Shown: one piece after another, positions 277 to 28,914 of the stretch
Layout of the letters: the number at the start of each line of letters is the position of its first letter
How positions within the stretch are numbered: the stretch's first letter is position 1
Assembly (NCBI RefSeq): GCF_043950625.1
Contig: NZ_CP171007.1
DNA length: 32,000 nt
Reading direction: 5' to 3' (one strand)
From: Alkanindiges sp. WGS2144
GTDB lineage: Bacteria > Pseudomonadota > Gammaproteobacteria > Pseudomonadales > Moraxellaceae
Notes under the pieces: generated by a model
Database searches by the model: none
What the model saw: the letters and a program-made list of their open reading frames with translations, nothing else
Told to the model about the DNA's origin: nothing
Position numbers and translations under genes: made by a program

Positions 277-497
277 GCAGTCACTCCTTTAAGTTGTATC
301 CTGCTTGCTTAAAACAGATGAATAAGCATTAAAAATACATTGGAATGTCGTGTTTGCCTATGGTTTAAATGTAGGGCAGCGAGATGGGGTGCCGTGCAAG
401 CCAAGTGAAGATAGGCTAGTATCAGTCTCATCGATGAGTTGCCGATACCCCTACAGGGTTAGGCGAATAAAATCCACTGTCATCACTGGTGAAAGAG

Positions 498-1340: not shown

Positions 1341-1446
1341 TAGCAATATTTAGCCCAAAAATACAGCAGCGCTCTGACAAAACCTTAATTTTCTGCTAAG
1401 GTTGCGCTGCTTTATAGTGCAGAGCCAGTTGATGGAATTACCAGCC

Positions 1447-2133: not shown

Positions 2134-2156
2134 CAGTGAAAACACTATAAAACGGT

Positions 2157-2187
2157 GGGGGTAAACTTAAAGTTATCCCCATTTTTT
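2157..2187 (+). terminator. putative intrinsic terminator of rpe
   Basis: GGGGGTAA (2157-2164) pairs with TTATCCCC (2173-2180), including one G-U. An 8-nt loop is followed by A+TTTTTT (2181-2187), 24 nt after the rpe stop. Confidence 0.6.
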
Positions 2188-2337
2188 AGGGATAAACTTG
2201 TGGATAAGGCTGTTTATATTTTCTATAAAAATAGTAAGTGACTGTAATATAGGGAAATTTAAAAAGATTCTCCGGCTGTTAGCGCAATGAGCAATAAATT
2301 TAAATAGTGCTACCTTGCAAGCAGTTTTTATCGCCTA

Positions 2338-3564: not shown

Positions 3565-3794
3565 TGCCTTGATAAAACAAGCTAAAACACTATTAAAGCA
3601 TGCAAAAATAGGTGTTTAACAATACCCCTTATATTTTATAACCGGTCAGTTTTAAAGTAGGCGTCAGGTATAACAAATGTTTGCGATATATCGGAAAATA
3701 ATGGTTAAAAATGATACAAAATAATATGTAAACGAATTGTGATTTTATGTAAGTAGTGTAAACTGGCTCAATGAATGAGATAGCGTTTTGATGG

Positions 3795-4298
3795 GTGCAA
3801 GCTATGCCGAATCGTGTACTTCAACCAGTCTGGCAATTAATGGTCTTTACCGGAATCTGCCTGCTCTGGACTGGCTTAAGCACAATTTTAATGTATTTTG
3901 CTTTAAATGGCTTGTATGCACCGGCGAGTGTAATACTGCATGCGGCAGCCCCATGGTACGATTTTTTATTTCAGGTGTGTTTGTTCTGGCTTAGCCTGAT
4001 TGCAGCGGGTATCGGCTTGGCACATATGACATTCACCCGGCACTGGTATCATTCCCTGCGCAATATCATTAGCCTGTGGCAAGGGATTATTGGGCAGCAG
4101 TGGAAAATGCTCAGCTTTATTTTGCTATTAAGCTATACGGCGTTAGCCTTTATGGTGTATGTGGTGCAAAAAAATACCGGTTTTGATGGTCAACTGTTAT
4201 TGGCCGTGACCGCTGCTGCATTGGTGATGTTTAGCCGTGATATTAGTCAGCAGGCGTTGTATATGATTGCCAAAGTGAATTCAGGTGCTTCAGTGTAA
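3795..4298 (+). CDS. hypothetical integral membrane protein
   Basis: 167-aa ORF with about 4 hydrophobic spans. It is followed by a clean terminator. The start could be the GTG at 3795 or the ATG at 3804. No family recognised. Confidence 0.6.
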   Translation: MQAMPNRVLQPVWQLMVFTGICLLWTGLSTILMYFALNGLYAPASVILHAAAPWYDFLFQVCLFWLSLIAAGIGLAHMTFTRHWYHSLRNIISLWQGIIGQQWKMLSFILLLSYTALAFMVYVVQKNTGFDGQLLLAVTAAALVMFSRDISQQALYMIAKVNSGASV

Positions 4299-4941: not shown

Positions 4942-5538
4942 GTGCTCTATATTATTATTCTTATTAGTGTAATGGCCATAATTTTATTTGCCTCATCCCC
5001 CGAATTTAAAGGTAAGCGTATTACTGCACTTGCCAGAAGACGTCTGGATGAGCGCTATGAAATGCTGCAAGGTCAGGTTTTGCCAGATGTGCAGGCTGGC
5101 ACGATTAAAATGGGGCATATGGTGCTTAGTCCTTTTGGCATTTTTGTGGTGAAATCGAAAAAATATCCGGGCTGGATCTACGGTCAGGCTGGCGAAAAGT
5201 TTTGGACGCAAAAGCTATTTGGCACGAAGACAGAACTTAAGAATCCCCTGCTGCAAAATGAACAGCGTATGGCTGCCCTGACCAAACTGTTACACGGCCT
5301 GGTTGACCCACAGCATATTCATTCAGTCGTGACATTCCCGCTGCAAAGTACCTTTAAAACCCCTATGCCTGCAAACGTAGTGCAGGGTAGCGCGTGGATT
5401 GACTATATTAGGCAGTTTCAGCAGCCGGTATTTACCCCAGAACAACTGGCGCAGATTCGGGAGCGTATCAAGCAAAGTGCTATGGGCAAGGAAGCTGAGG
5501 CTGTGCATGTTCAGCGTCAGGAAAAGCATGCGCATTAA
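4942..5538 (+). CDS. NERD (nuclease-related domain) protein with N-terminal transmembrane helix
   Basis: GTG start preceded by AAGGAGGAGG. An N-terminal hydrophobic helix is followed by ...GHMVLSPFGIFVVKSKKYPGWIYG...FWTQKLFG...KNPLLQNEQRMAAL, the NERD pattern. Confidence 0.8.
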   Translation: MLYIIILISVMAIILFASSPEFKGKRITALARRRLDERYEMLQGQVLPDVQAGTIKMGHMVLSPFGIFVVKSKKYPGWIYGQAGEKFWTQKLFGTKTELKNPLLQNEQRMAALTKLLHGLVDPQHIHSVVTFPLQSTFKTPMPANVVQGSAWIDYIRQFQQPVFTPEQLAQIRERIKQSAMGKEAEAVHVQRQEKHAH

Positions 5539-13802: not shown

Positions 13803-13960
13803 GGCAATGACCTATAGGCAAATTAAGGTTGACAGATGTTAGGGCAGAAGCTTTATTTTGACAATAAGAGTTGTCAAAAAATAAATCCGTATAATTAATT
13901 AACCAAGCTTAAAGCACAGCCAGCCTTGTGCATGCAGTCTGTGTGGGAGTATGCAACAAG

Positions 13961-14129
13961 CAGTAAATACCCATTATAAATCTGCTACAATTGCGCCAAT
14001 TTCTAAATTCCATTTTTCCAGTTTTGTGCATATCGACAAGTGTGTGCAATATGGTGTACCTATTGAAGATTTTCTAATGTTTAAAGATCAATTAGCGCAA
14101 GAAGTAAAGGCTCGCAGGACGTTTGCAAT
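13961..14129 (+). repeat. left copy of the island-flanking direct repeat (presumed native prfC leader + first 17 codons)
   Basis: Collinear, with one indel, with 28956-29125. The coding part 14077-14129 matches 29073-29125 at 45/53 nt. By eye the leader is roughly two-thirds to three-quarters identical. Similarity stops exactly at the IS3 end. Confidence 0.85.
14077..14129 (+). pseudogene. prfC: displaced 5' fragment of prfC (17 codons), truncated by IS3
   Basis: Encodes [17 protein letters not shown], compared with [17 protein letters not shown] at the start of the intact prfC (29073). The reading then runs into the IS3 inverted repeat and stops at 14145. Confidence 0.85.
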
Positions 14130-14168
14130 GGTAATCCTCCCATAAATAACCGAAGTTAAAAGTAGAGG

Positions 14169-14981
14169 TTAAGCAGCCATTAGAGGTGGCCTTCCTTTGT
14201 TTGCCTGATGTGGTCTTTCATGGTTGTAATGCCACAGCCAGTTTGTTGCATATTCTTGTACTTCATCCAAAGTATCAAATAAATGTTTGCTCAGCCAACT
14301 ATAACGTATAGTCCGATTATAGCGTTCAATATATGCATTCTGCTGTGGTTTACCTGGTTGAATATATTCAATATGAATACCTTGTTCAGTTGCCCAGCGT
14401 ACAAATTCGTGACTGATAAACTCCGGGCCATTGTCACAACGAATAACTAACGGTTTTTCTCGCCATTCCAATAACTGATCCAATGTGCGAACAACCCTGA
14501 TCGTGGGTAATGAGAATCCTGCTTCAATAGCCAAACCTTCTCGACGGTAATCATCAATTACATTCAATAGCCGGTACTTACGACCATCGATCAGCTGATC
14601 ATGCATAAAATCCAGTGACCAGACCTGATTTGCCCGGATCGGCTCTTTCAGTGGTTCTGGTGCATGCCGTTTTAGTCTTCTTCTCGGTTTAATGCGCAGA
14701 TTTAGTGCCAATTCACAGTAAATGCGATAAACACGCTTATGATTCCAAACATAGTTTTCAACATGACGTAGATAAGAGAAACACAGACCAAAGCCCCAAT
14801 CTGTATTTTCTTCAGTGAGCTTAATGAGCTGTTCTGCAATGAATGCATTGTCATCGTTTAACTTGGACTGATAACGGTAGCAGGTTTCACTGATACTAAA
14901 TGCTCGGCAAGCCAAACGAATGCTAATAGCATGGTGGGCAACTGCCTGTTGTGCCATCTGACGTCGGTGAGATGGCTTCAC
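14169..14981 (-). CDS. IS3-family transposase OrfB (DDE catalytic domain)
   Basis: DDE/RNase-H-fold motifs: [27 protein letters not shown]...HERPH. It lies in the -1 frame relative to orfA. Confidence 0.88.
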
Positions 14982-15274
14982 CCTTGCGCAGCAGTGCTGC
15001 TCATTGCCATCGCTTCCTGGATAATTTCTGCCTTTAATCGTTCTTCCGCATACATCTTTTTAAGTCTGGTATTTTCTGCTTCCAGCTCTTTCAGCCGTGC
15101 CATCAATGATGTATCCATACCACCATATTTGGCACGCCATTTATATGAGCAGCACTGCTGCGCAAGGGCATTACTCATGCCGTGTTCACGACAAAGGGCA
15201 GCTACAGGTGTCCCAGACTCCGCCTGCTTCAAAATGGACATGATCTGACTGTCAGTAAATTTAGATGTTTTCAT
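14978..15274 (-). CDS. IS3-family transposase OrfA (HTH + leucine zipper)
   Basis: [34 protein letters not shown]...[30 protein letters not shown] is a typical IS3/IS407-type OrfA. A candidate -1 slip site A-AAA-AG lies at complement 15056-15062. The orfB frame opens immediately after a TAA overlapping that motif. Confidence 0.85.
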
Positions 15275-15750
15275 GCAGAATCTCCTGCTTGTGTCTTAAG
15301 AGAAAATTCTACTTTTAGATCCTATTATTTTTAGGGGGGATTACCTTAGCTATTACTTCATTGCGAGCTTTATAGAGAAACATATAGAGTTTCACAGCAA
15401 ATTCCTAGCTAAATAACTTTCATAGATATGAGGATGTACAATGTTGTTCTTGAATGCTTCTTGAGCAATATAATTTCCAGATGAAGAGGTCAGCTTATAA
15501 ATCTAAGGTAGAGTCAATTGATCCTTATATAACTAAGATTGAATTTAATCATCTCATATCTTAATTTTTTGATTCAAATGTTAATGATATTAACTTTAAT
15601 AAATTCATAGCATTATGTCGAAATAAAAACCCAGATTTTGGCTCAGCTATGGGAAATTTTTTTAACTTTTATACAACAAAACTTTCTGACATGCATACAT
15701 TAGCAATGTCAGAATCAGTTTTAATTCTAATCAATTGTGGAGTTTTAGTC

Positions 15751-16065
15751 ATGCTTAAAACAGCTTTATATGTCCGTCTTGAAGCTAAACCGGGTAAAGA
15801 AGACGAAGTGGAAGCTTTCCTTAAAGCCGGTTTACCTATTGTAATGGAAGAACCTGCGACAGTTGCGTGGTTTGGCCTACGTCTTGGACCTACAACATTT
15901 GGTATTTTTGATGCATTTCCTGATGAGGCGGGTCGCCAAGCACATTTATCTGGCAAGGTTGCAGCTGCGTTGATGGCTCAGGCCGATGAGCTATTTTCAG
16001 AGCCACCGTCTATTGAAAAAGTAGATGTTTTGGCTAGTAAACTACCAGCTCATACCGACGCTTAA
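15751..16065 (+). CDS. ABM-domain (antibiotic-biosynthesis/quinol monooxygenase-like) protein
   Basis: ORF 15649-16065. The ATG at 15751 is preferred (GGAG 8 nt upstream), giving 104 aa. MLKTALYVRLEAKPGKEDEVEAFLKAGLPIVMEEPATVAWFGLRLGPTTFGIFDAF... is ABM/ferredoxin-like. The stop abuts the IS21 end. Confidence 0.7.
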   Translation: MLKTALYVRLEAKPGKEDEVEAFLKAGLPIVMEEPATVAWFGLRLGPTTFGIFDAFPDEAGRQAHLSGKVAAALMAQADELFSEPPSIEKVDVLASKLPAHTDA

Positions 16066-16066
16066 A

Positions 16067-17025
16067 TGTATGAGTGTTAATTTCAGTGGAAAAATGCACC
16101 ACTTAGCCTAGGGTTTTCAGTGCAATTTTGCACCACCCTAGGGAATGTTAATCTCTCGCTATTTAACAGCGAGGCGAACCTAGGTGTTGTGCATGGAAAC
16201 TGTTGCCAAAGTCAGACGGCTATATCATAAAGACGGACTCTCTCAACGAGCCATTGCGCTCAAGCTGCACTTGAGCCGTCGTACAGTCAGGAAATATCTT
16301 GAGTGTACTGAAGAACCTACCTATCAGCGTCAAGTTCAACCCTATCCCCAATTGGGTGAATATAAAGAGCGCCTTGAAGCACGGTTATTAGTCGAGTTAC
16401 CACTTCCCAAGAGTAAACGCTTAAGTGCCCAGCGACACTTTGAGTGGTTGAAAAGCATTGGCTATCAGGGTGCGTATGGAGCTGTTTGTGGATATATCCG
16501 AACCTACTATAAGACCCATCATCAACCTGTAACAGCATTCATCCCACAACGATTTACCATTGCTGATGCTTATCAGTTTGACTGGAGTACCGAGCAGGTT
16601 CGTTTAGCTGGTGTCGTGATTAAAGTCCAGGTTGCCCACTTTCGTTTATGTTATAGCCGTGGGTTCTTCATCCGCGCTTATCCATCCCAGAAAATAGAAA
16701 TGCTGATGGATGCGCATAATCATGCCTTCACCTACTTTGGTGGCACACCGCAACGTGGCATTTACGACAATATGAAAACAGCGGTAAAAAGCATTGGTTC
16801 AGGCAAGGATCGAGAGTTCAATGATCAGTTTATGGGCATGATGAACCACTTTTTAATTGAACCAGTTGCCTGTACCCCGGCTTCTGGCTGGGAAAAAGGA
16901 CAGGTTGAACGGCAGGTTCAAACCCTGCTTAAAAAGCTGTTTGAGCCGATGCTTGCCTTTGAAACCTTAGAGGAGCTGAATCGATATCTATATGACCAAT
17001 GCAAATATCTGATTACCCAAATATT
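16067..17025 (+). mobile_element. IS21-family element, left end plus 3'-truncated istA (istB and right end missing)
   Basis: The left terminus carries reiterated sites typical of IS21: TTTCAGTGGAAAAATGCACCAC..CTAGGG and TTTCAGTGCAATTTTGCACCACCCTAGGG (16081-16143). IstA similarity ends near 17010-17025. Both ends are approximate. Confidence 0.75.
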
Positions 17026-17065
17026 TGATATCTATTCAAGCCCATTCAACCTATTTCAAATATAA
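16193..17065 (+). pseudogene. istA: truncated IS21-family transposase IstA
   Basis: The ATG at 16193 gives METVAKVRRLYHKDGLSQRAIALKLHLSRRTVRKYL (HTH). The DDE region follows (FDWS, YDNMKTAV, GWEKGQVE). The last ~17 codons (ITQIFDIYSSPFNLFQI*) look unrelated, and no istB follows. Confidence 0.75.
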
Positions 17066-17269
17066 TAATAAAAGCATTGTAAGTGCTGTAAAAATATAAA
17101 AATATTGATATTCTTTATCTGGTATATCTTTCAACCCCATTCAATAGATTTCAAGTCTAGTCAGTATGTTTGTGTACATATGTGTGTACACATTTTCTAG
17201 AATTTTCTATTTGAAAAAAATATGTACACAGGTGGAGTAAAATGCCTTTAACAGATACGTGGCTTAAGA

Positions 17270-18271
17270 TGTGAAAATTGAGACTTCTACTGACATTTTG
17301 GTAAATTTTACCTCATGTCACAGGAGTTTCGATTTTGAGTACAAAAGCCCAGCGGGAAATCGCCCATAAATTAAAAGTATTTGCTCATGCAGAGCACAGT
17401 GGGAATATTGCTTTCACCTGTCGTTATTTTGGTATTTCACGAGATACTTTCTATCGTTGGAAAAAGAATTACCAAACTAAAGGTGAATCTGGGCTAATCA
17501 ACAGCAAGCCCTGTCCAGAAAATCCCAAGTTACGCACGCCTCCTGCCATTGAAGAGAAGATTCTTCATTTACGTCAGCATTATCATTTTGGGCAGGTAAG
17601 GATCAGTTGGTACTTATGGCGCTATCATCAAATTAAAATCTCGGCAGCGGGTGTATATCACGTTTTAAAACGTAATGGTCTGAATCGGCTGCCCCAGAAT
17701 CAGCGAAAACGATCCATTCCTACTCCTCAGCGCTATGAGAAACAAGTACCAGGCCACCATGTTCAAGTTGATGTAAAGTTCTTATTTTTCAAAGATCAAG
17801 ATGGAAAGAGGATTAAAAGATATCAATACACTGCGATTGATGATGCAACCAGAGTCAGGGCACTAAAAATCTATGAAAAGCACAACCAGGCTAATGCGAT
17901 TGATTTTGTCAATTATGTTATTGAGAAGTTTCCTTTTCGGATTCATACCATCCAGACCGATAATGGGCATGAATTCCAATCGAAATTTCATTGGCATTTA
18001 AACGATTTAGCAATTCATCATAGGTACATAAAGCCTCGAACTCCCAAACATAATGGCAAGGTCGAGCGATCTCATAAGACCGACAAGATGGAGTTTTACC
18101 AGTTATTAAACTATACCGATGATGTCGACCTAAACGCTAAATTAGCGGAATGGGAGGCATTTTATAACTATGCCAGACCTCATGCTGCTATGGATGGAAA
18201 AACACCCTATGAGCGATTGAAAGAAAAACTATGCTAAAGTTATGATGTCAGCGGAAGTGCTAGTATTCACA
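17270..18271 (+). mobile_element. IS481-family insertion sequence (~1.0 kb)
   Basis: Terminal inverted repeats TGTGAAAATTGAGACTTCTACTGAC (17270-) and the reverse complement of the 18271 end, TGTGAATACTAGCACTTCCGCTGAC, match at 18/25. One transposase gene. The flanks (TTAAGA / CTTTAA) are not a duplication. Confidence 0.85.
17335..18237 (+). CDS. IS481-family DDE transposase
   Basis: 300-aa ORF with a TTG start and AGGAG upstream. An N-terminal HTH (ISRDTFYRWKKNY) is followed by an integrase-core DDE (VQVDVK, TDNGHEF, NGKVERSH). Confidence 0.9.
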   Translation: MSTKAQREIAHKLKVFAHAEHSGNIAFTCRYFGISRDTFYRWKKNYQTKGESGLINSKPCPENPKLRTPPAIEEKILHLRQHYHFGQVRISWYLWRYHQIKISAAGVYHVLKRNGLNRLPQNQRKRSIPTPQRYEKQVPGHHVQVDVKFLFFKDQDGKRIKRYQYTAIDDATRVRALKIYEKHNQANAIDFVNYVIEKFPFRIHTIQTDNGHEFQSKFHWHLNDLAIHHRYIKPRTPKHNGKVERSHKTDKMEFYQLLNYTDDVDLNAKLAEWEAFYNYARPHAAMDGKTPYERLKEKLC

Positions 18272-18280
18272 CTTTAAAGT

Positions 18281-18307
18281 AGGGAGTGTGAACTCCCTTA
18301 TTTTTTT
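18281..18307 (+). terminator. orphan intrinsic terminator immediately right of IS481
   Basis: AGGGAGT-GTGA-ACTCCCT followed by TA+T7. No gene remains upstream for it to terminate. Confidence 0.7.
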
Positions 18308-18368: not shown

Positions 18369-21206
18369 ATGTTCTACACTAACCACCAAATAAAATATTT
18401 TGCATGGGAAATTACAAAAAAACGCTCGGCATCAGACGTTGATCGTTTGTCGCAGTCGTTGTTTGATGCTCAGGTCGATGTAAATCCTCACCAAATTGAA
18501 GCTGCACTTTTTGCTTTAAATAATCCTTTAAGTAAAGGGGTCATTCTTGCTGATGAAGTGGGATTAGGGAAAACAATCGAGGCAGCTTTGGTGCTATGTC
18601 AGTATTGGGCTGAAAGACGTCGAAATTTATTAATTATTTGTCCTGCATCTTTACGAAAGCAATGGGCACAAGAACTACAGGATAAATTTAACTTGCCTAC
18701 ACAAGTTTTAGATTTGAAAACTTGGAATATGGCTCGCAAAGATGGCATTTATGATCCATTTAAAAATGGCAAGATTTCTATAATTTCATATCCTTTTGCA
18801 AATCGAATGGAATATGCCTTGGCACAAATTCCATGGGATTTAGTTGTCATTGATGAAGCACATAAATTACGGAATGCTCATCGCTCAAGTAACAAAATTG
18901 GGAATAGTCTTAAACGCTCATTGATAGGCAAGAAAAAGTTGTTATTAACAGCGACACCGTTACAGAACACTTTAATGGAGCTTTATGGTTTAAGTACGAT
19001 AATAGATGAGCACTTATTTGGGGATGAGAAAGCATTTCGTTCTAGATATGTGGTTGATGGTGATATTCAATCGTTAAAAAAAAGAATCCAACAATTTATG
19101 CAAAGGACTTTGCGTAAAGATGTTTTGGAATATGTTCCTTACACTGACCGCCATGCTTTAACCGTACCATTTACACCTACGGATGATGAGCAAAGTCTAT
19201 ACAACTCAATCAGTGAGTATTTGCAACGAGAAGTTAGTTATGCATTTCCACAACAACAAAAACATTTAATTTCAATTGTTTTAAGAAAACTTTTGGCATC
19301 CTCGACTCCTGCTGTAATTGCAACTTTAGAAGCTATTCAACAGCGACTGAAAAAATTGCTTGAACAGCAGAGTCTAGATGAAGATTGGCTCAGTAATTTT
19401 ATTGTTGATGAGGATATGGATGAAGAGCTACTGGATGATTTTGATGAGGAAGCAGGTCATGGACAAATAGATGTTAGTTTAATTAAATCTGAAATAGCTG
19501 AAATTGAACGTTATATACAGCAGGCTTATAAAATTAAAGATGATAGTAAGACTTTTGCTTTACTTTCCGCGATTGAGCAAGGCTTTGCTCGTATGTTTGA
19601 AATGGGGGCGAAACGAAAGGCTGTTATTTTTACTGAATCAAAGCGTACTCAGGAATACTTGATCGCATTCTTGGAAGCACGAGGATACAACGGAAAAGTA
19701 ATAGGATTTAATGGTAGTAATACATCTGCAACGAATACAGGTATTTATCAAAAGTGGTTGGGTAAATATTTAGGGACTCAACATGTTACAGGCTCACCAG
19801 CAATTGATCGACGCACGGCTTTAATCGATTTTTTTAAGAATGAGGCAGAAATACTCATTGCGACAGAAGCAGCAGCAGAAGGTGTGAATTTACAATTTTG
19901 CTCTTTGGTCATTAACTATGATTTACCATGGAATCCGCAACGTGTGGAACAACGAATAGGTCGTTGCCATCGTTATGGGCAGGAGTTTGATGTTGTTGTC
20001 GTTAATTTCTTAAATGAAAGGAATGAAGCCGATCAGCGAGTTTTAGAGTTACTTAAAGATAAATTTCAATTATTTGATGGTGTCTTTGGTGCCTCGAATG
20101 ACATTTTAGGGACAGTTGAAAGTGGTATAAATTTTGAAAAACGGATTTCTGAAATTTATGATCAGTGTCGTAGTCCAGAAGAAATAGAACAAAGCTTTAA
20201 GCAATTAAGAGATGAGCTAGAAGAGCAAATCAACGTTAAAATGAAAAGGACGCAAGAGCTGTTACTTGAGCATTTTGATGCAGATATTCATGACTTGCTA
20301 AAAGTACAAAAAGAACGAGCTGAACTACAGCTAGATAAAATTAGTCGTTTGTTTTGGCTATCTACAAAATATATTCTTGGTAAATTTGCTAACTTTCACG
20401 ACCAAGATTTAAGTTTTGACTTAACAAAATCTCCAATTTTGAATGCACCTTCAGGGAAATATCAGCTTATACGAAAAGGTGAGCGAATTCCTGAAAATAC
20501 TTTTATCTATCGTTTGACTCATCCGCTTGGTGAATTTGTTTTAGATAATGCCAAAGGCTTACAAACACCAAAACAATTCATTCAGTTTGATTATAGCCAG
20601 TATGGTCAAAAGGTAACGCTACTAGAAGAGTTAAAAGGGCAAAAGGGTTGGCTATCTATTACGGTCTTGAGTTTGGATTCTTTTCAAGAAGAAGAACATA
20701 TTGTGATCACAGCAATGACTGATGATGGTAGGGTTTTAGATGTAGATTTGTGTGAGCGTTTGCTTCAAGTCAATGCAACAGTATTGTCTGATGTGGTAGA
20801 CACGATTCCCGACCTATTTCAGGCAAATATTGATAAGCAATATCAAGTTGCTTTGAATCATGCTTTGGAATTGAATGATGAGTTTTTCAGAAAGGAACGC
20901 GATAAGTTAGAGCAGTGGGCTGAGGATAGTTTGCTTGCTGTGGAGAAAATGCTTGAAGATATAAAGTTGAAAATATCTAGTCTGAAACGAGAGTCTCGCA
21001 AAGCACCTGATATTGAAACTGAAAAACGACTACAGGAAGAAATACAAAAAGCTGAAAAAGAAAAACGACGCATGAGACAGCAGGTTTTTGATGTTGAAGA
21101 TGAAATCGCAGATAAGCGTGATGCAATGATTGATGCATTGGAGCAAAGACTACATCGCTCAAGTAAAGCCGAGAATTTATTTGCAGTGAGGTGGCAGTTG
21201 GTTTAA
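18369..21206 (+). CDS. SNF2-family helicase/translocase with unassigned ~350-aa C-terminal domain and coiled coil
   Basis: 945 aa. Motifs: I ADEVGLGKT (GLGKT = aa 65-69, nt 18561-18575), II VIDEAHKLRN (DEAH aa 162-165), III LLLTATPLQN, V ATEAAAEGVNLQ, VI WNPQRVEQRIGRCHRYGQ. The region from aa ~600 to 850 is unrecognised. Aa ~850-930 is heptad-rich and charged (…KLEQWAEDSLLAVEKMLEDIKLKISSLKRE…). Confidence 0.9.
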   Translation: MFYTNHQIKYFAWEITKKRSASDVDRLSQSLFDAQVDVNPHQIEAALFALNNPLSKGVILADEVGLGKTIEAALVLCQYWAERRRNLLIICPASLRKQWAQELQDKFNLPTQVLDLKTWNMARKDGIYDPFKNGKISIISYPFANRMEYALAQIPWDLVVIDEAHKLRNAHRSSNKIGNSLKRSLIGKKKLLLTATPLQNTLMELYGLSTIIDEHLFGDEKAFRSRYVVDGDIQSLKKRIQQFMQRTLRKDVLEYVPYTDRHALTVPFTPTDDEQSLYNSISEYLQREVSYAFPQQQKHLISIVLRKLLASSTPAVIATLEAIQQRLKKLLEQQSLDEDWLSNFIVDEDMDEELLDDFDEEAGHGQIDVSLIKSEIAEIERYIQQAYKIKDDSKTFALLSAIEQGFARMFEMGAKRKAVIFTESKRTQEYLIAFLEARGYNGKVIGFNGSNTSATNTGIYQKWLGKYLGTQHVTGSPAIDRRTALIDFFKNEAEILIATEAAAEGVNLQFCSLVINYDLPWNPQRVEQRIGRCHRYGQEFDVVVVNFLNERNEADQRVLELLKDKFQLFDGVFGASNDILGTVESGINFEKRISEIYDQCRSPEEIEQSFKQLRDELEEQINVKMKRTQELLLEHFDADIHDLLKVQKERAELQLDKISRLFWLSTKYILGKFANFHDQDLSFDLTKSPILNAPSGKYQLIRKGERIPENTFIYRLTHPLGEFVLDNAKGLQTPKQFIQFDYSQYGQKVTLLEELKGQKGWLSITVLSLDSFQEEEHIVITAMTDDGRVLDVDLCERLLQVNATVLSDVVDTIPDLFQANIDKQYQVALNHALELNDEFFRKERDKLEQWAEDSLLAVEKMLEDIKLKISSLKRESRKAPDIETEKRLQEEIQKAEKEKRRMRQQVFDVEDEIADKRDAMIDALEQRLHRSSKAENLFAVRWQLV

Positions 21207-21348
21207 TACCAATTGCTATTTTTTTCTACAAATTTTTTTTATATTCAAAGTTATTTCTAGTATCCTTATCAGTTAATTTTGCCTAAGCAATTTTATTCGC
21301 TTCACCAGAACCTATTTATCATAAGGTTTTGAAAAATAGGAAATATTC

Positions 21349-24300
21349 ATGAGTACTCAGTTTTCTGCACTTGTTTCTAAACTCAAAGAGATTTTTCAAA
21401 TCAATCGTCCTGATTTAGATTTTGGAGTTTATCGCATTTTAAATGCACGTAGTGCCGAAATTGCTGAGTTTTTGGATAAGCGTTTAAAAACCAAAGTAGA
21501 GCAATATCTTGGCGAAGCAAAGTCGAGTCTTGATGAAAATGTTTTAAAAGAATTAGAAGCTGAGCTGAAAGCAGAATTTGGTAAACGTGCTTTTAATGAG
21601 CAAGGTGAGCTTATAGATGCTGAAGCAATAGAAAGTGCATTAGGTCAAAAATACATTGCTTTAACCCAAGCTGATGCACATGAAATGACAGATCAGTCAC
21701 AAGTGTATAGTCATTTGCTCACGTTCTTTAGTCGTTATTACGATGATGGTGACTTTATTAGCCAACGTCGTTATAAGGGTGATACCTATGCTATCCCTTA
21801 CTCTGGTGAGGAAGTGATGTTGCACTGGGCAAACAAAGACCAGTACTACACCAAGTCTGGTGAGATGTTTAGCAACTATCGTTTTAAGTTGAACGATGAG
21901 CGTTCAGTTTTATTCCGTTTGGTGAGTGCAGATACAGCGCGTGAAAACCGTAAAGATAATGATAAAGACCGTCGCTTTATTATTGTGACAGAACCAAAGA
22001 CCTTTACTCGTATAGATGAAGACGGTGAAGAGTTTGAAGAAACGATTGTTCCATTCTCTATTCAAAATAATGAACTGACCATTCTTTTTGAATATGCAAC
22101 TTTGCCTAAAGGCTCAAAGCAAGAAACATTAAATATTGAATCGTATAACAAAATTGTTAATGCAGAAGTTTTAACTACTGACTGGCTAAATGATTTAGCT
22201 CAACCTGCACCGACTGAAAAAGAACCAAAGCGTACAGTGTTGCACAAGCACTTGAGTACCTATACGCAAAAAAATACAGCAGATTATTTTATTCATAAAG
22301 ACTTAGGTAAATTCTTACGTCATGAACTTGATTTTTATATTAAAAATGAAGTGATGCATTTAGATGATGTAGTGAGTACCGATCAATTTATTCAAATTGA
22401 ACGTCAACTTAGTATTATCAAGTGTTTACGTCAGATTGGTTTAGAAATTATTAGTTTCTTGGCTTCGCTTGAAGATTTTCAGAAAAAGTTGTGGCTAAAG
22501 AAAAAGTTTGTCGTCAGTGCTGAATACTGCATTACTTTAGACCGAGTGGACGAGTCTTTATATACTGAAATTGCAGGCAATACATCACAGTGGCAACAAT
22601 GGGAGGATTTAGGCTTTAAAGGAACAGATGCAGGTTGGGGAACGGTTGATTATTTAAAACAGCACCAAGCCTTGATGGTGGATACTTCATTATTTAGCTT
22701 AGAGTTTAAAGCAAAGCTTTTAAAACGAATAGATGATTTAGATGCTCAAACTGATGGTTTGATTATTAATAGTGATAATTTTCAGGCACTAAGTTTACTC
22801 GGTGAAAAGTATAAACAATTAGTTGGTTGTATATATATCGATCCTCCTTACAATGCAAAGTCATCTGAAATCTTGTATAAGAATACATTTAAGCATTCAG
22901 CATTTTTAACTTTTATATCAAATCGTTTAGAGGTTTCTAAACCATTTTTACAATCTGGTGGTTTACTAAATATAGCAATAGATGATTATGAGCAAAAAGG
23001 AGTTATAACGGTATGTGATGAAATATATGGAAGTAATAATTTCATAGCGAATGTTGTTGTCCAACATAATCCTCGTGGAAGAAATGATGACAAGTTTTAT
23101 GGAACTTCTCATGAATATATGATTGTTTATACCAATAATATTGAAAATGCTAATTTAGGAAATTTTACATTAAGTGATGAAGATAAGAGTATTTATCGAT
23201 TAAGCGATACTATTTCTAAGTATCAAGAAGTTTCTTTTATGAGAACAGGTAACAATTCAGATAGAGTAACTAGACCTAATCTGTTTTACCCAATCTATTT
23301 AAATAAAAAGACTAATCTGTTAAGTCTTGATAAATCTGATGATTCGATAGAGATTTTACCAATAAATTCATCTAAAGAAGAAAAAACATGGCGTTGGGAG
23401 AGAAAAACATTCTTAGAAAGAAAAGATACGGAGGTTTCATTTAAAATTTCTGAAGATGGTGTTCGGCTTTATAAAAAAAGAAGATTACTTGATGTTGGTA
23501 AAAAACCAAAAACCATTTGGTTTGATTCAAAATATGATGCTTCAAGCAGTGGAATTATGTTCCTAAGGAACTTTTTTTCTAAGGATAATCACGAGTTTTC
23601 ATACCCTAAATCAATTTATACCGTTAAAGATGCAGTATATATTTCATCATCAAAAAATGGTGTTGTTTTAGATTATTTCGCAGGTTCAGGTACAACTGCT
23701 CATGCAACGATTGCTTTAAATCGTGAAGATAATGGAAATCGAAAATATATCCTTGTTGAGCAAGGCGAGTATTTTGATACAGTCATTAAGCCACGTATCC
23801 AAAAAGTCGTGTATTCAGCAGACTGGAAAGAGGGTAAACCAACCAATCCTGAGTCTGGTATTAGCCATTGCTTAAAAGTTGTGAAACTTGAAAGTTATGA
23901 AGATACGCTAAATAACTTAGAATTGGTGCGTAAAGGTGCTCAACAGACACTTTTAGCCGAGCAACAAGCTTCAACCAAGCCTGAAGATCAAAACGCTTAT
24001 AGCGATTATCTCATGCACTATATGCTTGAGTTAGAAAGCAAAGATTCATTACTGAATGTGAAAGACTTCTTAAAGCCATTTAGCTATCAAATGAATATTA
24101 CAACCGATAGCGCAGGTGCGTTTGAACGTAAAAATATTGACTTGGTTGAAACCTTTAACTATCTCATTGGACTAAATGTTCAAGAAGCAGATTATCAGTT
24201 AGACAAAGGCTATGTGCAAATCACAGGTAAACTACGTACAGGTGAATACACGACAGTTTTGTGGCGTGACTGTGAAAAGATTGGCTATGCAGAACTAGAT

Positions 24301-24471
24301 CAATTACTAGCAAAACTTAAAATTAATCCAAACGATGGCGAATACCAATTGATTTATATCAATGGTGATCATAATGTCGCGAGTAAGTACATCAACAAAG
24401 AGGGCGAAGAGAAACAGCTTAAAGTCCGTTCGATTGAACAAACCTTCTTAAAAAATATGTTTGAGGAGTAA
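21349..24471 (+). CDS. Mod-like beta-class N6-adenine/N4-cytosine DNA methyltransferase with ~480-aa N-terminal and ~230-aa C-terminal extensions
   Basis: 1040 aa with AGGAAA 8 nt upstream. Motif IV IYIDPPYN (DPPY aa 498-501, nt 22840-22851) precedes motif I VLDYFAGSGTTAHA (aa 774-787). A variable segment lies between them. This matches the Type III Mod layout (SDNFQALSLL, HSAFLTFISNRL, NIAIDD, NREDNGNRKYILVEQ). Confidence 0.9.
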   Translation: MSTQFSALVSKLKEIFQINRPDLDFGVYRILNARSAEIAEFLDKRLKTKVEQYLGEAKSSLDENVLKELEAELKAEFGKRAFNEQGELIDAEAIESALGQKYIALTQADAHEMTDQSQVYSHLLTFFSRYYDDGDFISQRRYKGDTYAIPYSGEEVMLHWANKDQYYTKSGEMFSNYRFKLNDERSVLFRLVSADTARENRKDNDKDRRFIIVTEPKTFTRIDEDGEEFEETIVPFSIQNNELTILFEYATLPKGSKQETLNIESYNKIVNAEVLTTDWLNDLAQPAPTEKEPKRTVLHKHLSTYTQKNTADYFIHKDLGKFLRHELDFYIKNEVMHLDDVVSTDQFIQIERQLSIIKCLRQIGLEIISFLASLEDFQKKLWLKKKFVVSAEYCITLDRVDESLYTEIAGNTSQWQQWEDLGFKGTDAGWGTVDYLKQHQALMVDTSLFSLEFKAKLLKRIDDLDAQTDGLIINSDNFQALSLLGEKYKQLVGCIYIDPPYNAKSSEILYKNTFKHSAFLTFISNRLEVSKPFLQSGGLLNIAIDDYEQKGVITVCDEIYGSNNFIANVVVQHNPRGRNDDKFYGTSHEYMIVYTNNIENANLGNFTLSDEDKSIYRLSDTISKYQEVSFMRTGNNSDRVTRPNLFYPIYLNKKTNLLSLDKSDDSIEILPINSSKEEKTWRWERKTFLERKDTEVSFKISEDGVRLYKKRRLLDVGKKPKTIWFDSKYDASSSGIMFLRNFFSKDNHEFSYPKSIYTVKDAVYISSSKNGVVLDYFAGSGTTAHATIALNREDNGNRKYILVEQGEYFDTVIKPRIQKVVYSADWKEGKPTNPESGISHCLKVVKLESYEDTLNNLELVRKGAQQTLLAEQQASTKPEDQNAYSDYLMHYMLELESKDSLLNVKDFLKPFSYQMNITTDSAGAFERKNIDLVETFNYLIGLNVQEADYQLDKGYVQITGKLRTGEYTTVLWRDCEKIGYAELDQLLAKLKINPNDGEYQLIYINGDHNVASKYINKEGEEKQLKVRSIEQTFLKNMFEE

Positions 24472-24477
24472 TGCACT

Positions 24478-27400
24478 GTGGCAAAAGCTCCTAAAGCAAA
24501 AACTAAAGCGGTTAAAGTCAATTTCCACGAGCAATTGATTTTAAATAAATGGTTGTGGTCGAAGTTTAATCCGAATCGTTTGGAAGGCATGAAACAACAG
24601 CTTGATTATCCTCAGTTTGAGGGAATCGAGTATGAAGGTGATAATGCAGGACAAACGAAATTCTTTAGTGTGATCAGTAATACTTTGTTTAACAAACAGG
24701 TTGTAGATATCGATGTTCTACGTCGCTATGACTTAAACATTGTGAAGCACTGGCAAAAAATTACGGAAAAACGTAATGAAATAGAAGGTCATATTTTAAA
24801 TCTAAAATATTTCCAATACCTTTCATTGCTTTTCACAGAACTGTATTTAGATCAATATTTTAATCATCAAGCGGATATGCTCAATGAGCTGAATGTTGAA
24901 CTTGAACAATATAATGATGATCAGAAAATTGATGCAGACCAATTTCAGCAATATTTGCCTGAAGACCTAAATAAAATCGGCTATTGGAATGCAACGGGCA
25001 GTGGTAAAACATTGCTTATGCATGTCAATATTTTGCAGTATTTAGACTATTTCCAAAAGCAAAATGGAGACAGCACTTACCCAGACCAAATCATTTTACT
25101 TACCCCAAATGAAGGCTTGAGTGAACAGCATTTACAAGAGCTGACAGACTCTGGTTTTCAAGCGACTTTGTTTGATAAGCAAAAAAGCCGTAATAACCTT
25201 TATCGAGATGAAATTCAAATCATCGATATGAACAAGCTGAGTGATACGGATGGTGATAAAACTGTTGCGACGATGAGCTTGGAAGGTAGAAACCTTGTTC
25301 TGATCGACGAAGGGCACCGTGGTACGAGTAGTAGCGCAGGTGCCTGGATGGAGCGTCGTGATATTCTTACTAAAGATGGATTTAGCTTTGAATATTCGGC
25401 AACCTTTGGTCAAGCTGTGAGTAAAGCAGACAACGTCTATAAACGCTTTGAAGATGCAAAAAAACAAAAAGCCAAAATGCTGTATGGTATGGCGATTAAT
25501 AAGTTAACCGAAGAACAGAAAAAAAATATTCAGCTTGATGAATTAGAACAGCAAAAATACCGTAGGGAAGCGCTTCGAGAAGTATATGCTAAAAGTATTT
25601 TGTTCGATTACTCGTACAAATACTTCTATGCAGATGGCTATGGTAAAGAAGTCAATATTCTGAATATGAAAGAATATCATGAAGATGATGAGCGCAATCT
25701 ATATCTTACAGCTTGCCTACTTTCATTTTACCAACAACAGTATTTGTTTAAAAAGAATCAGGCAAAACTTGCCAAGTTTAATATTGAAAAACCACTGTGG
25801 GTATTTGTCGGAAATAAAGTCAATGATGATGACTCTGATATTTTAGCCATTGTGAAATTCTTAGCTGACTTTTTAGATGCCTCTCGTAAGAGCAAGGTGA
25901 TTGGTTGGCTGCATGACTTAATTACTAATACATCTCGTTTGGTTGATCCTAAAGGAAACAATATTTTTGCCAATCGATTTGCACCTTTACATGGTCAAAA
26001 TGCAACTGATCTTTACCAAGATATTTTAAAAAGCTTTTTTAACGCTACAACCAATCAACGTTTGAATGTAGTACGTATCACGGCGAATAAAGGTGAGTTG
26101 CGTTTACAGGTCGGAGAAAATACTCCTTTTGCAGTGATTAATGTCGGTGATGAAAAAGGCCTATACGATAATTGTGAGAACTCAAGTCAAACGCATTACA
26201 TCAATGCTCGTACCGATGATTTTGCAGAGTCATTATTTCCTACATTAAATAATGATGATAGTGAAACACATCTTCTAATCGGTTCACGTAAATTTACCGA
26301 AGGTTGGAGTAGCTGGCGTGTCTCGACCATGGGCTTGTTGAACATGGGTTCAGGTGAAGGTGCTCAGATTATTCAGCTCTTTGGTCGTGGCGTACGTTTA
26401 AAAGGTGAGAACTTCTCTTTAAAACGAACACCAAGAGAAATTTATAGTAAGGCTGAATATAAAGGTCTGCATTTAGATTTGATGCAAACTATTAATATTT
26501 TTGGTTTACGTGCTGACTACATGGAAAAATTCCGCGATTATCTAAATGATGAAGGCATTATCCTGAATCAGGATTTAGTCACATTGGATTTTCCAACCAA
26601 TAAAATTCAAGCGCCTCGCTTAAAAACACTCACATTAAAAGATGGCTACAAAGATAATCAAGCGAATGGTTTTAAGGCTCAGTTAAAGCTTTCGATGTTT
26701 AAGATTCCAAAACAATACGAAGGTAAAATCAAAAAACCTTTTGTTGTTTTGGATTTGTATCCTCGCTTGCAAGCCTTTCATACCGATAAGTCAAAGCGTC
26801 AAATTGATGTTAAAGACAAGCGTCAAGAGCATGAGATTCCACCAAAAATCATGTGTATGTTTGATTTTGATGAAATTTACTTGCAACTTCAGCAATATAA
26901 GTTCCAACGAGGATATAGCAACTTACAGTTGAACGTTGATGATTTACAGGAGTTTTGCTTAAGAGATATTAAGACCTCTACAGAAGACTGGTACAAGCTT
27001 TTAGTTGACTCATCTGAATTAACCAATGACGTGAGTGGAATTAAGAAACAGCAAGCGATATTAACTGAGTTGTTACAGTCCTATATGGATAAGTTCTATC
27101 ATGCGATTAAGAATGCCTATGAAGGGCAGTTTTATGAAGTGACAGAATTTAGCTTGGATGATAAAGATTTACCTGTGCAAATTTGTGAGCAATATACCCT
27201 TACTGCTAAAGACGGTCAAAATAACGAGGCACAAGAAGTATTTGACCGATTAGAAAAGTTGAAAGACTTGGTTGCCAAAGGTGATGTTGAAAAACTGGTA
27301 CCTTGGAAAGAAGATGGTAGCTTTAGGGCGATTACGTTTGATCGTCATTTGTTCTATCCGTTGTTGGATAAGAAGGATGAAAGCTTACCATTTACATGGT

Positions 27401-27900
27401 CACCAATGCTATTTGACTACACTAGTCATACCCAAAGTAGTGAAGTGAAGTTTGTTCTGGATTTGCAAAGTTATATCAATACTCCAGATGCCAATGAACT
27501 CCTGAAAAATCATGAACTCTATTTGTTGCGTAATGCTGATAATAAGTATCGTGGACTAGGTTTCGCCTTGGCAGGTAATTTTTACCCTGATTTTTTATTG
27601 TGGCTAGTGAATAAACAAACAGGGCAGCAATATTTAACTTTAGTTGATCCTAAAGGCATCCGAAACATGAATCACGATGATGCTAAAATTGAGCTCTACA
27701 AAGAGATAAAAAGTATTGAAGCAAAACTCGATCATTCTGACTTGATTTTGAATAGCTTTATTTTGTCTATTACCCCAATGAAAGATATTCTGAATAACTC
27801 TCTTTCTGAAGAAGAGTTTGCTGAAAAAAATGTCTTATTTATGGTGGGTAATGGGACAGCTTATCTTGAGCAAATGTTGAAGAAAATTTTTGTTCAATAA
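24478..27900 (+). CDS. Res-like SF2 helicase/ATPase fused to C-terminal PD-DxK nuclease
   Basis: 1140 aa. GTG start with GAGGAG about 9 nt upstream, 6 nt after the mod stop. Motifs: Walker A ATGSGKT (aa 172-178), motif II LIDEGH (277-280), III SAT (307-309), V/VI FTEGWSSWRV...QLFGRGVRL. The nuclease motif is YPD(1038)FLLW...LVD(1057)PK(1059)G. Confidence 0.88.
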   Translation: MAKAPKAKTKAVKVNFHEQLILNKWLWSKFNPNRLEGMKQQLDYPQFEGIEYEGDNAGQTKFFSVISNTLFNKQVVDIDVLRRYDLNIVKHWQKITEKRNEIEGHILNLKYFQYLSLLFTELYLDQYFNHQADMLNELNVELEQYNDDQKIDADQFQQYLPEDLNKIGYWNATGSGKTLLMHVNILQYLDYFQKQNGDSTYPDQIILLTPNEGLSEQHLQELTDSGFQATLFDKQKSRNNLYRDEIQIIDMNKLSDTDGDKTVATMSLEGRNLVLIDEGHRGTSSSAGAWMERRDILTKDGFSFEYSATFGQAVSKADNVYKRFEDAKKQKAKMLYGMAINKLTEEQKKNIQLDELEQQKYRREALREVYAKSILFDYSYKYFYADGYGKEVNILNMKEYHEDDERNLYLTACLLSFYQQQYLFKKNQAKLAKFNIEKPLWVFVGNKVNDDDSDILAIVKFLADFLDASRKSKVIGWLHDLITNTSRLVDPKGNNIFANRFAPLHGQNATDLYQDILKSFFNATTNQRLNVVRITANKGELRLQVGENTPFAVINVGDEKGLYDNCENSSQTHYINARTDDFAESLFPTLNNDDSETHLLIGSRKFTEGWSSWRVSTMGLLNMGSGEGAQIIQLFGRGVRLKGENFSLKRTPREIYSKAEYKGLHLDLMQTINIFGLRADYMEKFRDYLNDEGIILNQDLVTLDFPTNKIQAPRLKTLTLKDGYKDNQANGFKAQLKLSMFKIPKQYEGKIKKPFVVLDLYPRLQAFHTDKSKRQIDVKDKRQEHEIPPKIMCMFDFDEIYLQLQQYKFQRGYSNLQLNVDDLQEFCLRDIKTSTEDWYKLLVDSSELTNDVSGIKKQQAILTELLQSYMDKFYHAIKNAYEGQFYEVTEFSLDDKDLPVQICEQYTLTAKDGQNNEAQEVFDRLEKLKDLVAKGDVEKLVPWKEDGSFRAITFDRHLFYPLLDKKDESLPFTWSPMLFDYTSHTQSSEVKFVLDLQSYINTPDANELLKNHELYLLRNADNKYRGLGFALAGNFYPDFLLWLVNKQTGQQYLTLVDPKGIRNMNHDDAKIELYKEIKSIEAKLDHSDLILNSFILSITPMKDILNNSLSEEEFAEKNVLFMVGNGTAYLEQMLKKIFVQ

Positions 27901-27903
27901 AGT

Positions 27904-28914
27904 ATGGGACAAATTGAAAATATGAAATACCAACCGCCTTATACCATCACCTCAAAAATCATTCATCTGATTGCTCAGATCAGTGAAAATATAGGGCGTT
28001 TGACTGTTTTAGAGGAAATTCAGGACAGCTTAAAACTACGAAAAGCCAATCGTATCCGTACCATTCAAGGCTCACTGGCGATTGAAGGGAACACTTTAAG
28101 TACGGAACAGATCACGGCGATTCTAAATGGTAAGACCGTAATTGCACCTCCAAAAGAAGTTCAAGAAGTGCGTAATGCGATTAAAGCCTATGAAGCCTTT
28201 CAGCAGTGGCAACCAAGTCAAGAGTCGGACTTACTACAAGCTCATCAAATTTTAATGACAGGCTTGATTGATGAAGTTGGTCAGTATCGTCATGGTGGTG
28301 TCGGTGTAATGTCAGGTGATCGAGTGGTGCATATGGCTCCGCCTGCAAATCAAATTAATCGACTGATGGTTGACTTACTTGATTGGTTAAATGATAGCGA
28401 AGTGCATCCTCTTATCCAAAGTTCAGTATTTCACTATGAGTTTGAATTTATTCATCCATTTGCGGATGGTAATGGGCGCATGGGAAGGCTATGGCAAACT
28501 TTAATATTAAGCAGATGGAATCCAATCTTTGCTAATATTCCTGTTGAGAGTTTGATCTATCAAAATCAAAAAGCCTACTATGAGGCTTTGCAAGCAAGTA
28601 CAGACCGAACAGATTCAGCCCCATTTATAGAATTCATCTTACAGATGATTTTAGATGCCATTCTTAGTTCAACTGATACCGCTCAAGATAGCGATCATGC
28701 TACCGCTCAAGTGAGCGACCAAGTTCAGCGTTTACTTTCGGCAATGAAGCAAGAAGATTATACTTTAGCTGAATTGATGCAATTGGTTGGATTAACGCAT
28801 CGAGCAACGTTCCAAAAGAATTACTTAAATCCTGCAATAGAAGCAGATTTGATTGAGCGTACTATTCCAGATAAGCCGAAAAGTCCGAAACAAAGATATA
28901 GATTAAAAAGATAA
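27904..28914 (+). CDS. Fic-family (AMPylase-type) protein, class II, with C-terminal winged-helix
   Basis: 336 aa starting 3 nt after the res-like stop. The Fic motif HPFADGNGRMGR (aa 184-195) is intact. An N-terminal inhibitory-helix motif SLAIEG (aa 57-62) fits (S/T)xxxE(G/N). The C-terminal ...LIERTIPDKPKSPKQRYRLK is a wHTH-type tail. An alternative start is the ATG at 27922. Confidence 0.88.
   Translation: MGQIENMKYQPPYTITSKIIHLIAQISENIGRLTVLEEIQDSLKLRKANRIRTIQGSLAIEGNTLSTEQITAILNGKTVIAPPKEVQEVRNAIKAYEAFQQWQPSQESDLLQAHQILMTGLIDEVGQYRHGGVGVMSGDRVVHMAPPANQINRLMVDLLDWLNDSEVHPLIQSSVFHYEFEFIHPFADGNGRMGRLWQTLILSRWNPIFANIPVESLIYQNQKAYYEALQASTDRTDSAPFIEFILQMILDAILSSTDTAQDSDHATAQVSDQVQRLLSAMKQEDYTLAELMQLVGLTHRATFQKNYLNPAIEADLIERTIPDKPKSPKQRYRLKR

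Follow-up and report, generated by a model that had tools for sequence, protein, structure and literature searches.

Type III restriction-modification (R-M) enzymes need two inversely oriented sites and cut about 25-27 bp from one of them. The nearest characterized relative of the locus described here is EcoR22I, a Type III R-M system of E. coli ECOR22 that has a linked drmD-like SNF2 gene (bioRxiv 10.1101/2023.04.06.535777). Its mod and res genes suffice to restrict unmethylated lambda-vir, Mod-methylated phage is spared, and restriction is abolished in the nuclease double mutant D1024A/D1043A (res*) (bioRxiv 10.1101/2023.04.06.535777). The EcoR22I Mod-Res complex also kills the cell upon expression of T7 Ocr, without any Fic protein being involved, and transposon suppressors of this Ocr toxicity were obtained only in mod and res, none of them in the SNF2 gene (bioRxiv 10.1101/2023.04.06.535777). 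Here we analyzed a locus encoding, in this order, an SNF2 helicase, a Mod methyltransferase, a Res protein and a Fic-domain protein in a stretch of 32,000 nucleotides from Alkanindiges sp. WGS2144 (contig NZ_CP171007.1), hereafter called the window. The locus is very probably an intact Type III R-M system of the EcoR22I family that comes with the usual SNF2 accessory gene and with an unrelated Fic gene. An original prediction, made from the DNA letters, held that the cassette fits no canonical class; this view has to be abandoned, since the Mod and Res proteins of the window match Type III models over their full length and the E. coli relative behaves as a Type III R-M system.

Architecture of the cassette and probable kinship with EcoR22I

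The four co-directional open reading frames (ORFs) of the original prediction, with gaps of 142, 6 and 3 nt between SNF2 and Mod, Mod and Res, and Res and Fic, were recovered from the ORF coordinates (Table 1). Each of the catalytic motifs that had been read as intact was found at its predicted residue. These are GLGKT65, DEAH162 and GRCHRYGQ531 in SNF2, DPPY498 and then FAGSG777 in Mod, and GSGKT174, DEGH277, SAT307 and QLFGRGVR633 in Res, where the superfamily 2 (SF2) ATPase part covers aa 174-640 and the C-terminal PD-(D/E)xK nuclease is marked by PD1037-38 and DPK1057-59 (nt 27586-27654). The Fic protein has the motif HPFADGNGR184 and, in addition to what had been reported, an N-terminal inhibitory-helix motif, SLAIEG57. 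Across the homologue alignments the catalytic motif residues are invariant.

The window shares with EcoP1I and EcoP15I a beta-class Mod with the order DPPY, variable region and FxGxG, a mod gene followed by res, and a Res protein with its helicase motifs first and its PD-(D/E)xK nuclease last. The reading of such a mod-then-res pair with a C-terminal nuclease as the Type III blueprint is thus in line with both the motif order and the 6-nt gap. Compared with EcoP1I and EcoP15I, however, the window Mod is extended by about 450 residues at its N-terminus and by about 130 at its C-terminus, and Res is about 170 amino acids longer. The window also has an SNF2 partner, whereas phage P1 has none beside res/mod.

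Both proteins match the Type III models of PADLOC, which are derived from REBASE, from end to end: Mod matches MTase_III PDLC03646 (980 bits, model length 1057) and Res matches REase_III PDLC03654 (1264 bits, model length 1154). At E ≤ 10 REase_III was the only PADLOC match of Res, with no second REase_III model matched, and its Pfam matches at that threshold were limited to ResIII, DEAD and SWI2_SNF2. Mod is called N6_N4_Mtase by Pfam. Its core (aa 451-906) matches by sequence the solved Type III Mods of Mbo45V, H. pylori and EcoP15I in the PDB (7dsu, 6k0w and 4zcf), and the top Foldseek matches of its AlphaFold2 model (pLDDT 65) are 6k0w, 4zcf_A/B and 7dsu with E = 1e-19 to 1e-14. Mod is thus a predicted beta-class N6-adenine methyltransferase homologous to characterized Type III Mods. 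Its length of 1040 aa, previously regarded as an anomaly, is a trait of an existing family, because the PADLOC model that it matches end to end itself has 1057 positions; the homologues of this family measure 1029-1081 aa throughout. The N-terminal region (aa 1-450, nt 21349-22700) is strongly conserved across phyla, and both this region and the Mod C-terminus gave noise only in Pfam at E ≤ 10. In the structural model aa 1-450 appear to combine a helical bundle and long helices with a domain rich in beta-strands at about aa 177-253.

To compare the window with the EcoR22I family we used the triad of E. coli A3. In full-length blastp alignments SNF2 is 54%, Mod 46-50% and Res 52.5% identical to the A3 proteins, and D1038 and D1057 of the window Res correspond to D1024 and D1043 of A3 Res. 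In both the Salmonella (1125 aa) and the E. coli A3 Res, the Asp of the PD motif is residue 1024 and that of DPK is residue 1043, the same numbers as those of the residues mutated in EcoR22I. The A3 triad adjoins a tRNA-Leu gene and the Salmonella copies adjoin P4-like genes. EcoR22I and the window have in common an SNF2 gene, Mod and Res proteins of about 1040 and about 1125-1140 aa, respectively, the latter with a PD...DPK nuclease, and a mobile island; the window differs in its identity of 46-54%, its Moraxellaceae host, the Fic gene after res and the insertion sequence (IS) elements upstream. From the homology of the triad and the numbering of the nuclease Asp residues we conclude that the window locus is a Moraxellaceae member of a family with a bona fide Type III representative in E. 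coli.

The sequence specificity of the family appears to be exchangeable. The cassette of the nearest Acinetobacter relative, Acinetobacter sp. ANC 4558 (L006; L numbers designate the loci of our comparison sets), is 90-92% identical to the window at the DNA level on both sides of a single break at 22885-23653 (8366-9176 in L006), which lies in Mod and whose columns are also variable in the alignment of Mod homologues. Accordingly, Mod is 76% identical between the two loci, against 96% for SNF2 and 95% for Res. The target-recognition region of Mod has been exchanged between otherwise near-identical cassettes, implying a recent change of sequence specificity. Exchange of this region is the usual route by which R-M systems alter their specificity. 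As the target-recognition region also differs from that of EcoR22I, the specificity of the window system probably differs from that of EcoR22I.

Several points weigh against the assignment to the EcoR22I family of Type III systems. The window copy is known from sequence alone, and the R-M phenotype and the Ocr-triggered death belong to a relative that is about 52% identical and would carry over to the window by analogy. The link to EcoR22I is itself indirect, as it runs through residue numbering, architecture and genomic setting, with the E. coli A3 triad standing in for ECOR22. The EcoR22I assays used overexpressed mod and res with few readouts (bioRxiv 10.1101/2023.04.06.535777), and SNF2 may be needed at native expression levels. 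Res has no sequence similarity to any solved structure in phmmer and profile searches of the PDB, and alignment of its profile to EcoP1I Res with hhalign covers motif VI only, with 3% probability. The AlphaFold2 model of Res, based on a 12-sequence alignment, is poor (pLDDT 57.6) and too weak for fold comparison; Foldseek searches with it returned generic SF2 helicases only, none at E ≤ 0.001, a result that has no bearing on Type III membership. Because Res is so divergent, its Type III label depends on the PADLOC model, the layout of its motifs and the phenotype of EcoR22I. Finally, expression of the cassette in the window is uncertain, because an IS481 element and a terminator-like hairpin stand in place of the native upstream region.

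This last point raises the question of whether the window copy might be silent or decaying, its ORFs intact but its promoter region replaced. Homology to the Acinetobacter loci begins only 6 nt inside the SNF2 ORF, at 18375, and judging from this boundary IS481 has taken the place of the native sequence upstream of the SNF2 gene. The IS481 gene and the hairpin (18281-18298, between IS481 and the SNF2 start) lie directly upstream and three IS elements flank the island. We nevertheless regard a silent copy as quite unlikely: none of the four ORFs is truncated and their catalytic residues are invariant, the AT-rich SNF2-Mod spacer of 142 nt could hold a promoter for mod and res, and an active res in an unmethylated genome would be lethal, so that a coordinated state of the two genes is expected.

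Table 1 Coordinates of the cassette, its subregions and the upstream transposase genes in the window.
Feature	Position	Strand	Size or basis
SNF2 (RapA/DrmD-like) helicase gene	18369-21206	+	945 aa
Type III Mod gene	21349-24471	+	1040 aa
Type III-like Res gene	24478-27900	+	1140 aa, GTG start
Fic-domain gene	27904-28914	+	336 aa
Mod variable target-recognition region, about aa 513-768	22885-23653	+	blastn vs L006 and alignment columns
Shared block, SNF2 through Res, 9.5 kb	18375-27886	+	blastn vs L091 and L092, about 95% DNA identity
IS481-family transposase gene	17335-18237	+	NCBIfam IS481, 275 bits; abuts cassette
IS21 transposase gene	16184-17065		
IS3 transposase gene	14169-14981		

The SNF2 gene as a partner of Type III enzymes

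Relatives of the window Res, which define what we call family A, occur in at least 594 species-representative genomes across many phyla. From these we kept 80 Res-anchored genome loci, 67 of which had enough flanking sequence to be judged. A full-length SNF2 homologue adjoins Mod/Res in 58 of the 67, in the order SNF2-Mod-Res at 50 loci and Mod-Res-SNF2 at 8, the latter order being found in Pasteurellaceae, Neisseria, Cardiobacterium and Enhydrobacter. Viral-like contigs gave SNF2 in 15 of 22 informative loci. In all, the SNF2 gene is co-conserved with the family A Mod/Res pair in 73 of the 89 informative loci (82%), so the co-occurrence across genomes that the original prediction left to be checked does exist. 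The loci without SNF2 (16/89) mostly belong to a divergent Res subclade, and one of them has mfd as its upstream gene. This subclade, with Res proteins 32-39% identical to that of the window, comprises L187, L197, L202 and L205-L208 among the viral-like contigs and L070-L072 and L085 among the genomes; an SNF2 gene is usually absent from its flanks, as far as these were available (4-7 kb on the upstream side of mod, 4-10 kb on the downstream side of res). The Mod/Res pair can evidently persist as a two-gene system.

We also anchored the search on SNF2, using 41 loci from metagenomes that extend 8 kb or more downstream. A Type III Mod/Res pair lies beside SNF2 in at least 37 of them. The partner is the large, window-type pair of family A in 14 loci, a second pair, family B, in 17 (Mod 527-572 aa and Res 931-959 aa in the two loci scanned) and a third, family C, in 6 (Mod 649 aa and Res 1000 aa in the one locus scanned); one further locus has a family B Mod with the Res position beyond the locus end, and in three no Type III pair is present. 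Over its full length the family C Res is homologous to EcoP1I Res (27% identity, E = 1e-58). Since the SNF2 family stands beside these three Mod/Res families, it is a recurrent partner of Type III enzymes generally, and the earlier statement that Type III systems have no SNF2 partner does not apply to families A, B and C, one of which is EcoP1I-like. Full-length SNF2 homologues 40-49% identical to that of the window, C-terminal domain included, were seen directly upstream of ordinary-sized Mod/Res pairs of two other PADLOC families (L118, L169, L129 and others in L093-L172). Families B and C lack the N-terminal 450-residue region of Mod, yet they are paired with the same SNF2 family.

Pairwise identities over the 73 family A loci gave a Mantel r of 0.89 for Mod versus Res and of 0.55 for SNF2 versus Res, and the SNF2 versus Res correlation fell to about 0.07 for pairs with a Res identity below 0.6. 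The nearest SNF2 neighbor has the same partner family in 77/78 cases for family A and in 20/21 for family B, and SNF2 proteins that are up to 73% identical to each other occur with different Mod/Res families. The weak correlation between SNF2 and Res, together with the dispensability of SNF2 in the EcoR22I assays, leads us to consider SNF2 as an exchangeable accessory motor and not as a co-evolving core subunit.

The SNF2 protein has the Pfam domains SNF2-rel_dom and Helicase_C in a core covering aa 30-650. PADLOC DrmD PDLC02619 matches this core with 670 bits over aa 30-643, and NCBIfam DrmD_b gives 675 bits for a cut-off of 950, with a match that stops at position 645 of the 868 in the model. 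RapA was the best match in sequence searches of the PDB; in the hhalign comparison of the SNF2 profile with RapA the N-terminal lobe alone was aligned. The C-terminal domain (aa 650-945) gave noise only in Pfam at E ≤ 10 and is not matched by the DrmD models. This domain occurs in 1437 representative clusters, where it almost invariably forms the C-terminal end of proteins about 950 aa long. Pfam searches, including those at E ≤ 10, revealed no nuclease or other effector domain in the SNF2 protein.

A helicase of this kind next to an adenine methylase recalls class 1 DISARM (DrmD, DrmMI, DrmA, DrmB, DrmC), to which the window is similar in that its SNF2 core is closest to the DrmD models and in the general logic of SNF2, adenine methylase, helicase and nuclease. 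The window methylase is a Type III Mod, however, and not DrmMI. DISARM was rejected as neither DrmB (DUF1998) nor DrmC (phospholipase D-type, PLD) was found in the four proteins or in the other matched window ORFs, as had been noticed before together with the lack of a BREX core, and DrmA was likewise not found. SNF2 was also rejected as a DrmD equivalog, being below the DrmD_b cut-off with some 300 C-terminal residues unmatched. ARMADA is defined by a YprA/DUF1998 helicase (OB-CON-DUF1998 module) and a PglX-like methylase, and its type II consists of the SNF2 protein ArmA, the methylase ArmB, the YprA helicase-nuclease ArmC and ArmD. Type II resembles the window in combining SNF2 with a methylase and a helicase-nuclease effector on satellite-like islands; it was rejected because Res has no YprA/DUF1998 domains in Pfam even at E ≤ 10. 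The Hma system, centered on DUF499 and related to BREX, is composed of a helicase, the 5-methylcytosine methylase HmaB and the DUF499 ATPase HmaC, and resembles the window as a three-gene operon of an SNF2-type helicase and a methylase that often hosts embedded defense genes. Membership in Hma, which the original prediction had suggested, was rejected: with its 5-methylcytosine methylase and DUF499 ATPase Hma is another system, the window Mod is an N6_N4_Mtase, Res matches REase_III only, and SNF2 prefers DrmD (670 bits) to HmaA (178 bits). HmaB was not among the 25 listed of the 34 PADLOC matches for Mod. What DISARM, ARMADA, Hma and the window share is the theme of SNF2 together with a methylase and a helicase-nuclease; they are alike in logic, which does not make the window a member of any of these classes. 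Our literature search found no named system combining SNF2 with Type III enzymes and no follow-up to the EcoR22I preprint.

These precedents led us to consider that the triad could be an obligate three-component system of DISARM or ARMADA type, and hence a new class, in which SNF2 is an essential subunit that loads or drives Mod/Res. SNF2 is indeed adjacent in 82% of the informative family A loci, in either of two gene orders and frequently separated by very short gaps; the SNF2 gene of ARMADA II, armA, is required for defense; and loss of drmD and drmMI from class 1 DISARM nearly abolishes protection against one phage. We consider this explanation unlikely all the same. EcoR22I mod and res restrict lambda-vir and trigger death by themselves, with no suppressors in the SNF2 gene, and the 16 SNF2-less loci, the weak SNF2-Res co-evolution and the pairing of SNF2 proteins up to 73% identical with different Mod/Res families all argue in the same direction.

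At the other extreme, SNF2 might be an independent single-gene defense or a hitch-hiker in defense islands. Stand-alone SNF2 defense proteins do exist, HmaA with its fused nuclease being an example, in three of the 41 SNF2-anchored loci a Type III pair is missing from the vicinity, and the SNF2-Mod junction tolerates diverse inserts. Such independence is nevertheless very hard to reconcile with the finding that at least 37 of the 41 homologues directly adjoin a Type III pair of one of three families in the same orientation, that no effector domain was detected in the protein and that the cassette moves as a single block of 9.5 kb. We therefore retain the reading of SNF2 as a facultative Type III accessory.

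Mobility and cargo of the cassette

The G+C content of the window is 0.32-0.39 at about 17-29 kb, compared with 0.45-0.50 in the flanks. The AT-rich island that had been described is thus real; the four genes are not its sole substantial cargo, as IS3, IS21 and IS481 genes are also there. The downstream limit of the island is prfC, which starts at 29073. The shared block of Table 1 is common to islands of A. baumannii and A. radioresistens, in which the triad lies among integrase, AlpA, DUF932 and YqaJ genes. The cassette is horizontally acquired. A Mod 100% identical to that of the window is recorded under Alkanindiges sp., and the one contig on record with this Mod, from a Logan assembly of run SRR30887707, has the order SNF2-Mod-Res-Fic-prfC, as in the window.

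Among 5426 complete E. coli genomes, 173 carry the triad, and Res relatives were found on 28 plasmids, many of which are conjugative plasmids of Klebsiella or E. coli. A near-identity DNA search with the cassette gave nothing in E. coli genomes or plasmids, protein-level searches being required. On the E. coli plasmid pEC316_2 (L211) a small helix-turn-helix gene (2566-2811) overlaps the SNF2 start and is followed by the triad; it may encode a controller (C-protein-like) regulator and has no equivalent in the window. The Salmonella triad (L001-L004) is flanked, at 1-3635 and 13869-17384, by a LeoA/dynamin-like GTPase cluster and an AAA_11/AAA_12 helicase-PLD nuclease fusion, and its surroundings, a composite defense island, also hold CcdAB and P4-like genes.

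The original prediction had included the Fic gene in the cassette. This gene lies outside the shared block, and no Fic gene was found beside res in any of the 80 genome loci or in the 95%-identical Acinetobacter cassettes. The slot downstream of res, occupied by Fic in the window, holds GmrSD or an IS element in other loci, and because the contents of this slot vary we consider Fic as one alternative cargo gene and not as a fourth subunit. A GmrSD-type (Type IV) gene is present directly 3' of res, on either strand, at L005 14001-15836, L006 13439-15376 and L091 16625-18514; it would complement an R-M system because it would target modified DNA. The window Fic protein has the Pfam domains Fic and Fic-like_C and matches SoFic weakly (164 bits in PADLOC; 68 bits in NCBIfam for a cut-off of 550), and no record of the exact protein was found in the contig index.

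Could the four genes nonetheless form one unit, in which Fic is a cell-death effector coupled to Mod-Res sensing? The Fic ORF begins 3 nt after res, the junction recurs in the second assembly of the same organism, and Fic-family genes recur in these operons, being located between SNF2 and Mod in six loci of families A and C. The embedded Fic proteins are only about 30% identical and occupy a different position, though, and EcoR22I kills without Fic. Added to the absence of Fic beside res in the genome loci and in the closest Acinetobacter cassettes, this makes a functional four-gene unit highly improbable, and an unrelated Fic gene in a variable slot is the reading that we keep.

Genes are also embedded within the triad. 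Between Mod and Res we found a YhcG/DUF1016 PD-(D/E)xK nuclease (L026, L052) and an AAA_21 ATPase with DUF4276 (L048, L087, L088). The Mod-Res gap is about 1.1 kb in L013, L024, L026, L052, L053 and others and about 1.85 kb in L030, L031, L048, L087, L088 and others; the embedded genes were annotated in the five loci named first and the remaining loci were grouped by gap size only. Operons of Type I R-M, BREX and Hma have been reported to host embedded genes in a similar way. The inserts at the SNF2-Mod junction are diverse, the largest cluster being a SoFic-like Fic of about 370 aa in the six loci of families A and C. We looked for a conserved fourth gene between SNF2 and Mod and did not find one.

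As for the surroundings of the cassette, an ORF of 138 aa (15649-16065) lies amid the IS3/IS21/IS481 cluster (14169-18237) directly upstream. The remaining matched ORFs of the window are housekeeping genes, besides one small ORF of 198 aa with a nuclease-related domain (NERD) at 4942-5538. Its neighbor is a 167-aa ORF (3795-4298), the local G+C content is about 0.40, and this region may be a small separate defense or mobile remnant.

Proposed mode of action and significance

In the mechanism that we propose for the window system, a Mod dimer would use its variable region (about aa 513-768) to read a short, asymmetric site and would methylate adenine at N6 by means of DPPY and FAGSG, marking host DNA as self. 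Res, combining the SF2 ATPase with the nuclease residues D1038, D1057 and K1059, is predicted to bind Mod. On unmethylated foreign DNA, ATP hydrolysis would then permit long-range communication between sites, followed by the nuclease cut. By analogy with EcoR22I, binding of an anti-restriction protein that mimics DNA, T7 Ocr for example, may in addition cause Mod-Res to kill the cell. Sensing of anti-restriction had been proposed for the cassette with SNF2 as a candidate sensor; EcoR22I supports the sensing itself and places it in the Mod-Res complex, not in SNF2.

SNF2 would act as a facultative accessory double-stranded DNA translocase specialized for Type III enzymes. Basal restriction would not need it; at native expression levels its probable role is to extend or safeguard restriction. 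The Fic protein is likely to be a separate, auto-inhibited defense or toxin protein of AMPylase type whose gene sits in the variable cargo slot.

A bolder proposal, which we put forward tentatively and hold to be possible without favoring it, is that the SNF2 family, defined by a C-terminal domain of its own (about 300 aa), is a dedicated, exchangeable "plug-in" motor for unrelated Type III families and is necessary in the native setting. Such a motor could possibly clear DNA-bound or decoy anti-restriction proteins, or turn passive sliding into active translocation.

As such the cassette is unremarkable, a further copy of a widespread restriction system. Its SNF2 partner is named "SNF2-related protein" or an orphan DrmD by annotation pipelines, though it almost always lies beside a Type III Mod/Res pair. 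The role of this protein bears on how Type III enzymes act in vivo and on phage evasion, as well as on why pairs of SNF2 and methylase recur in DISARM, ARMADA, BREX type 3 and here. If the proposal of a plug-in motor is true, the motor would widen the range of phages restricted and would represent a new class of accessory subunit for an enzyme type known for 50 years.

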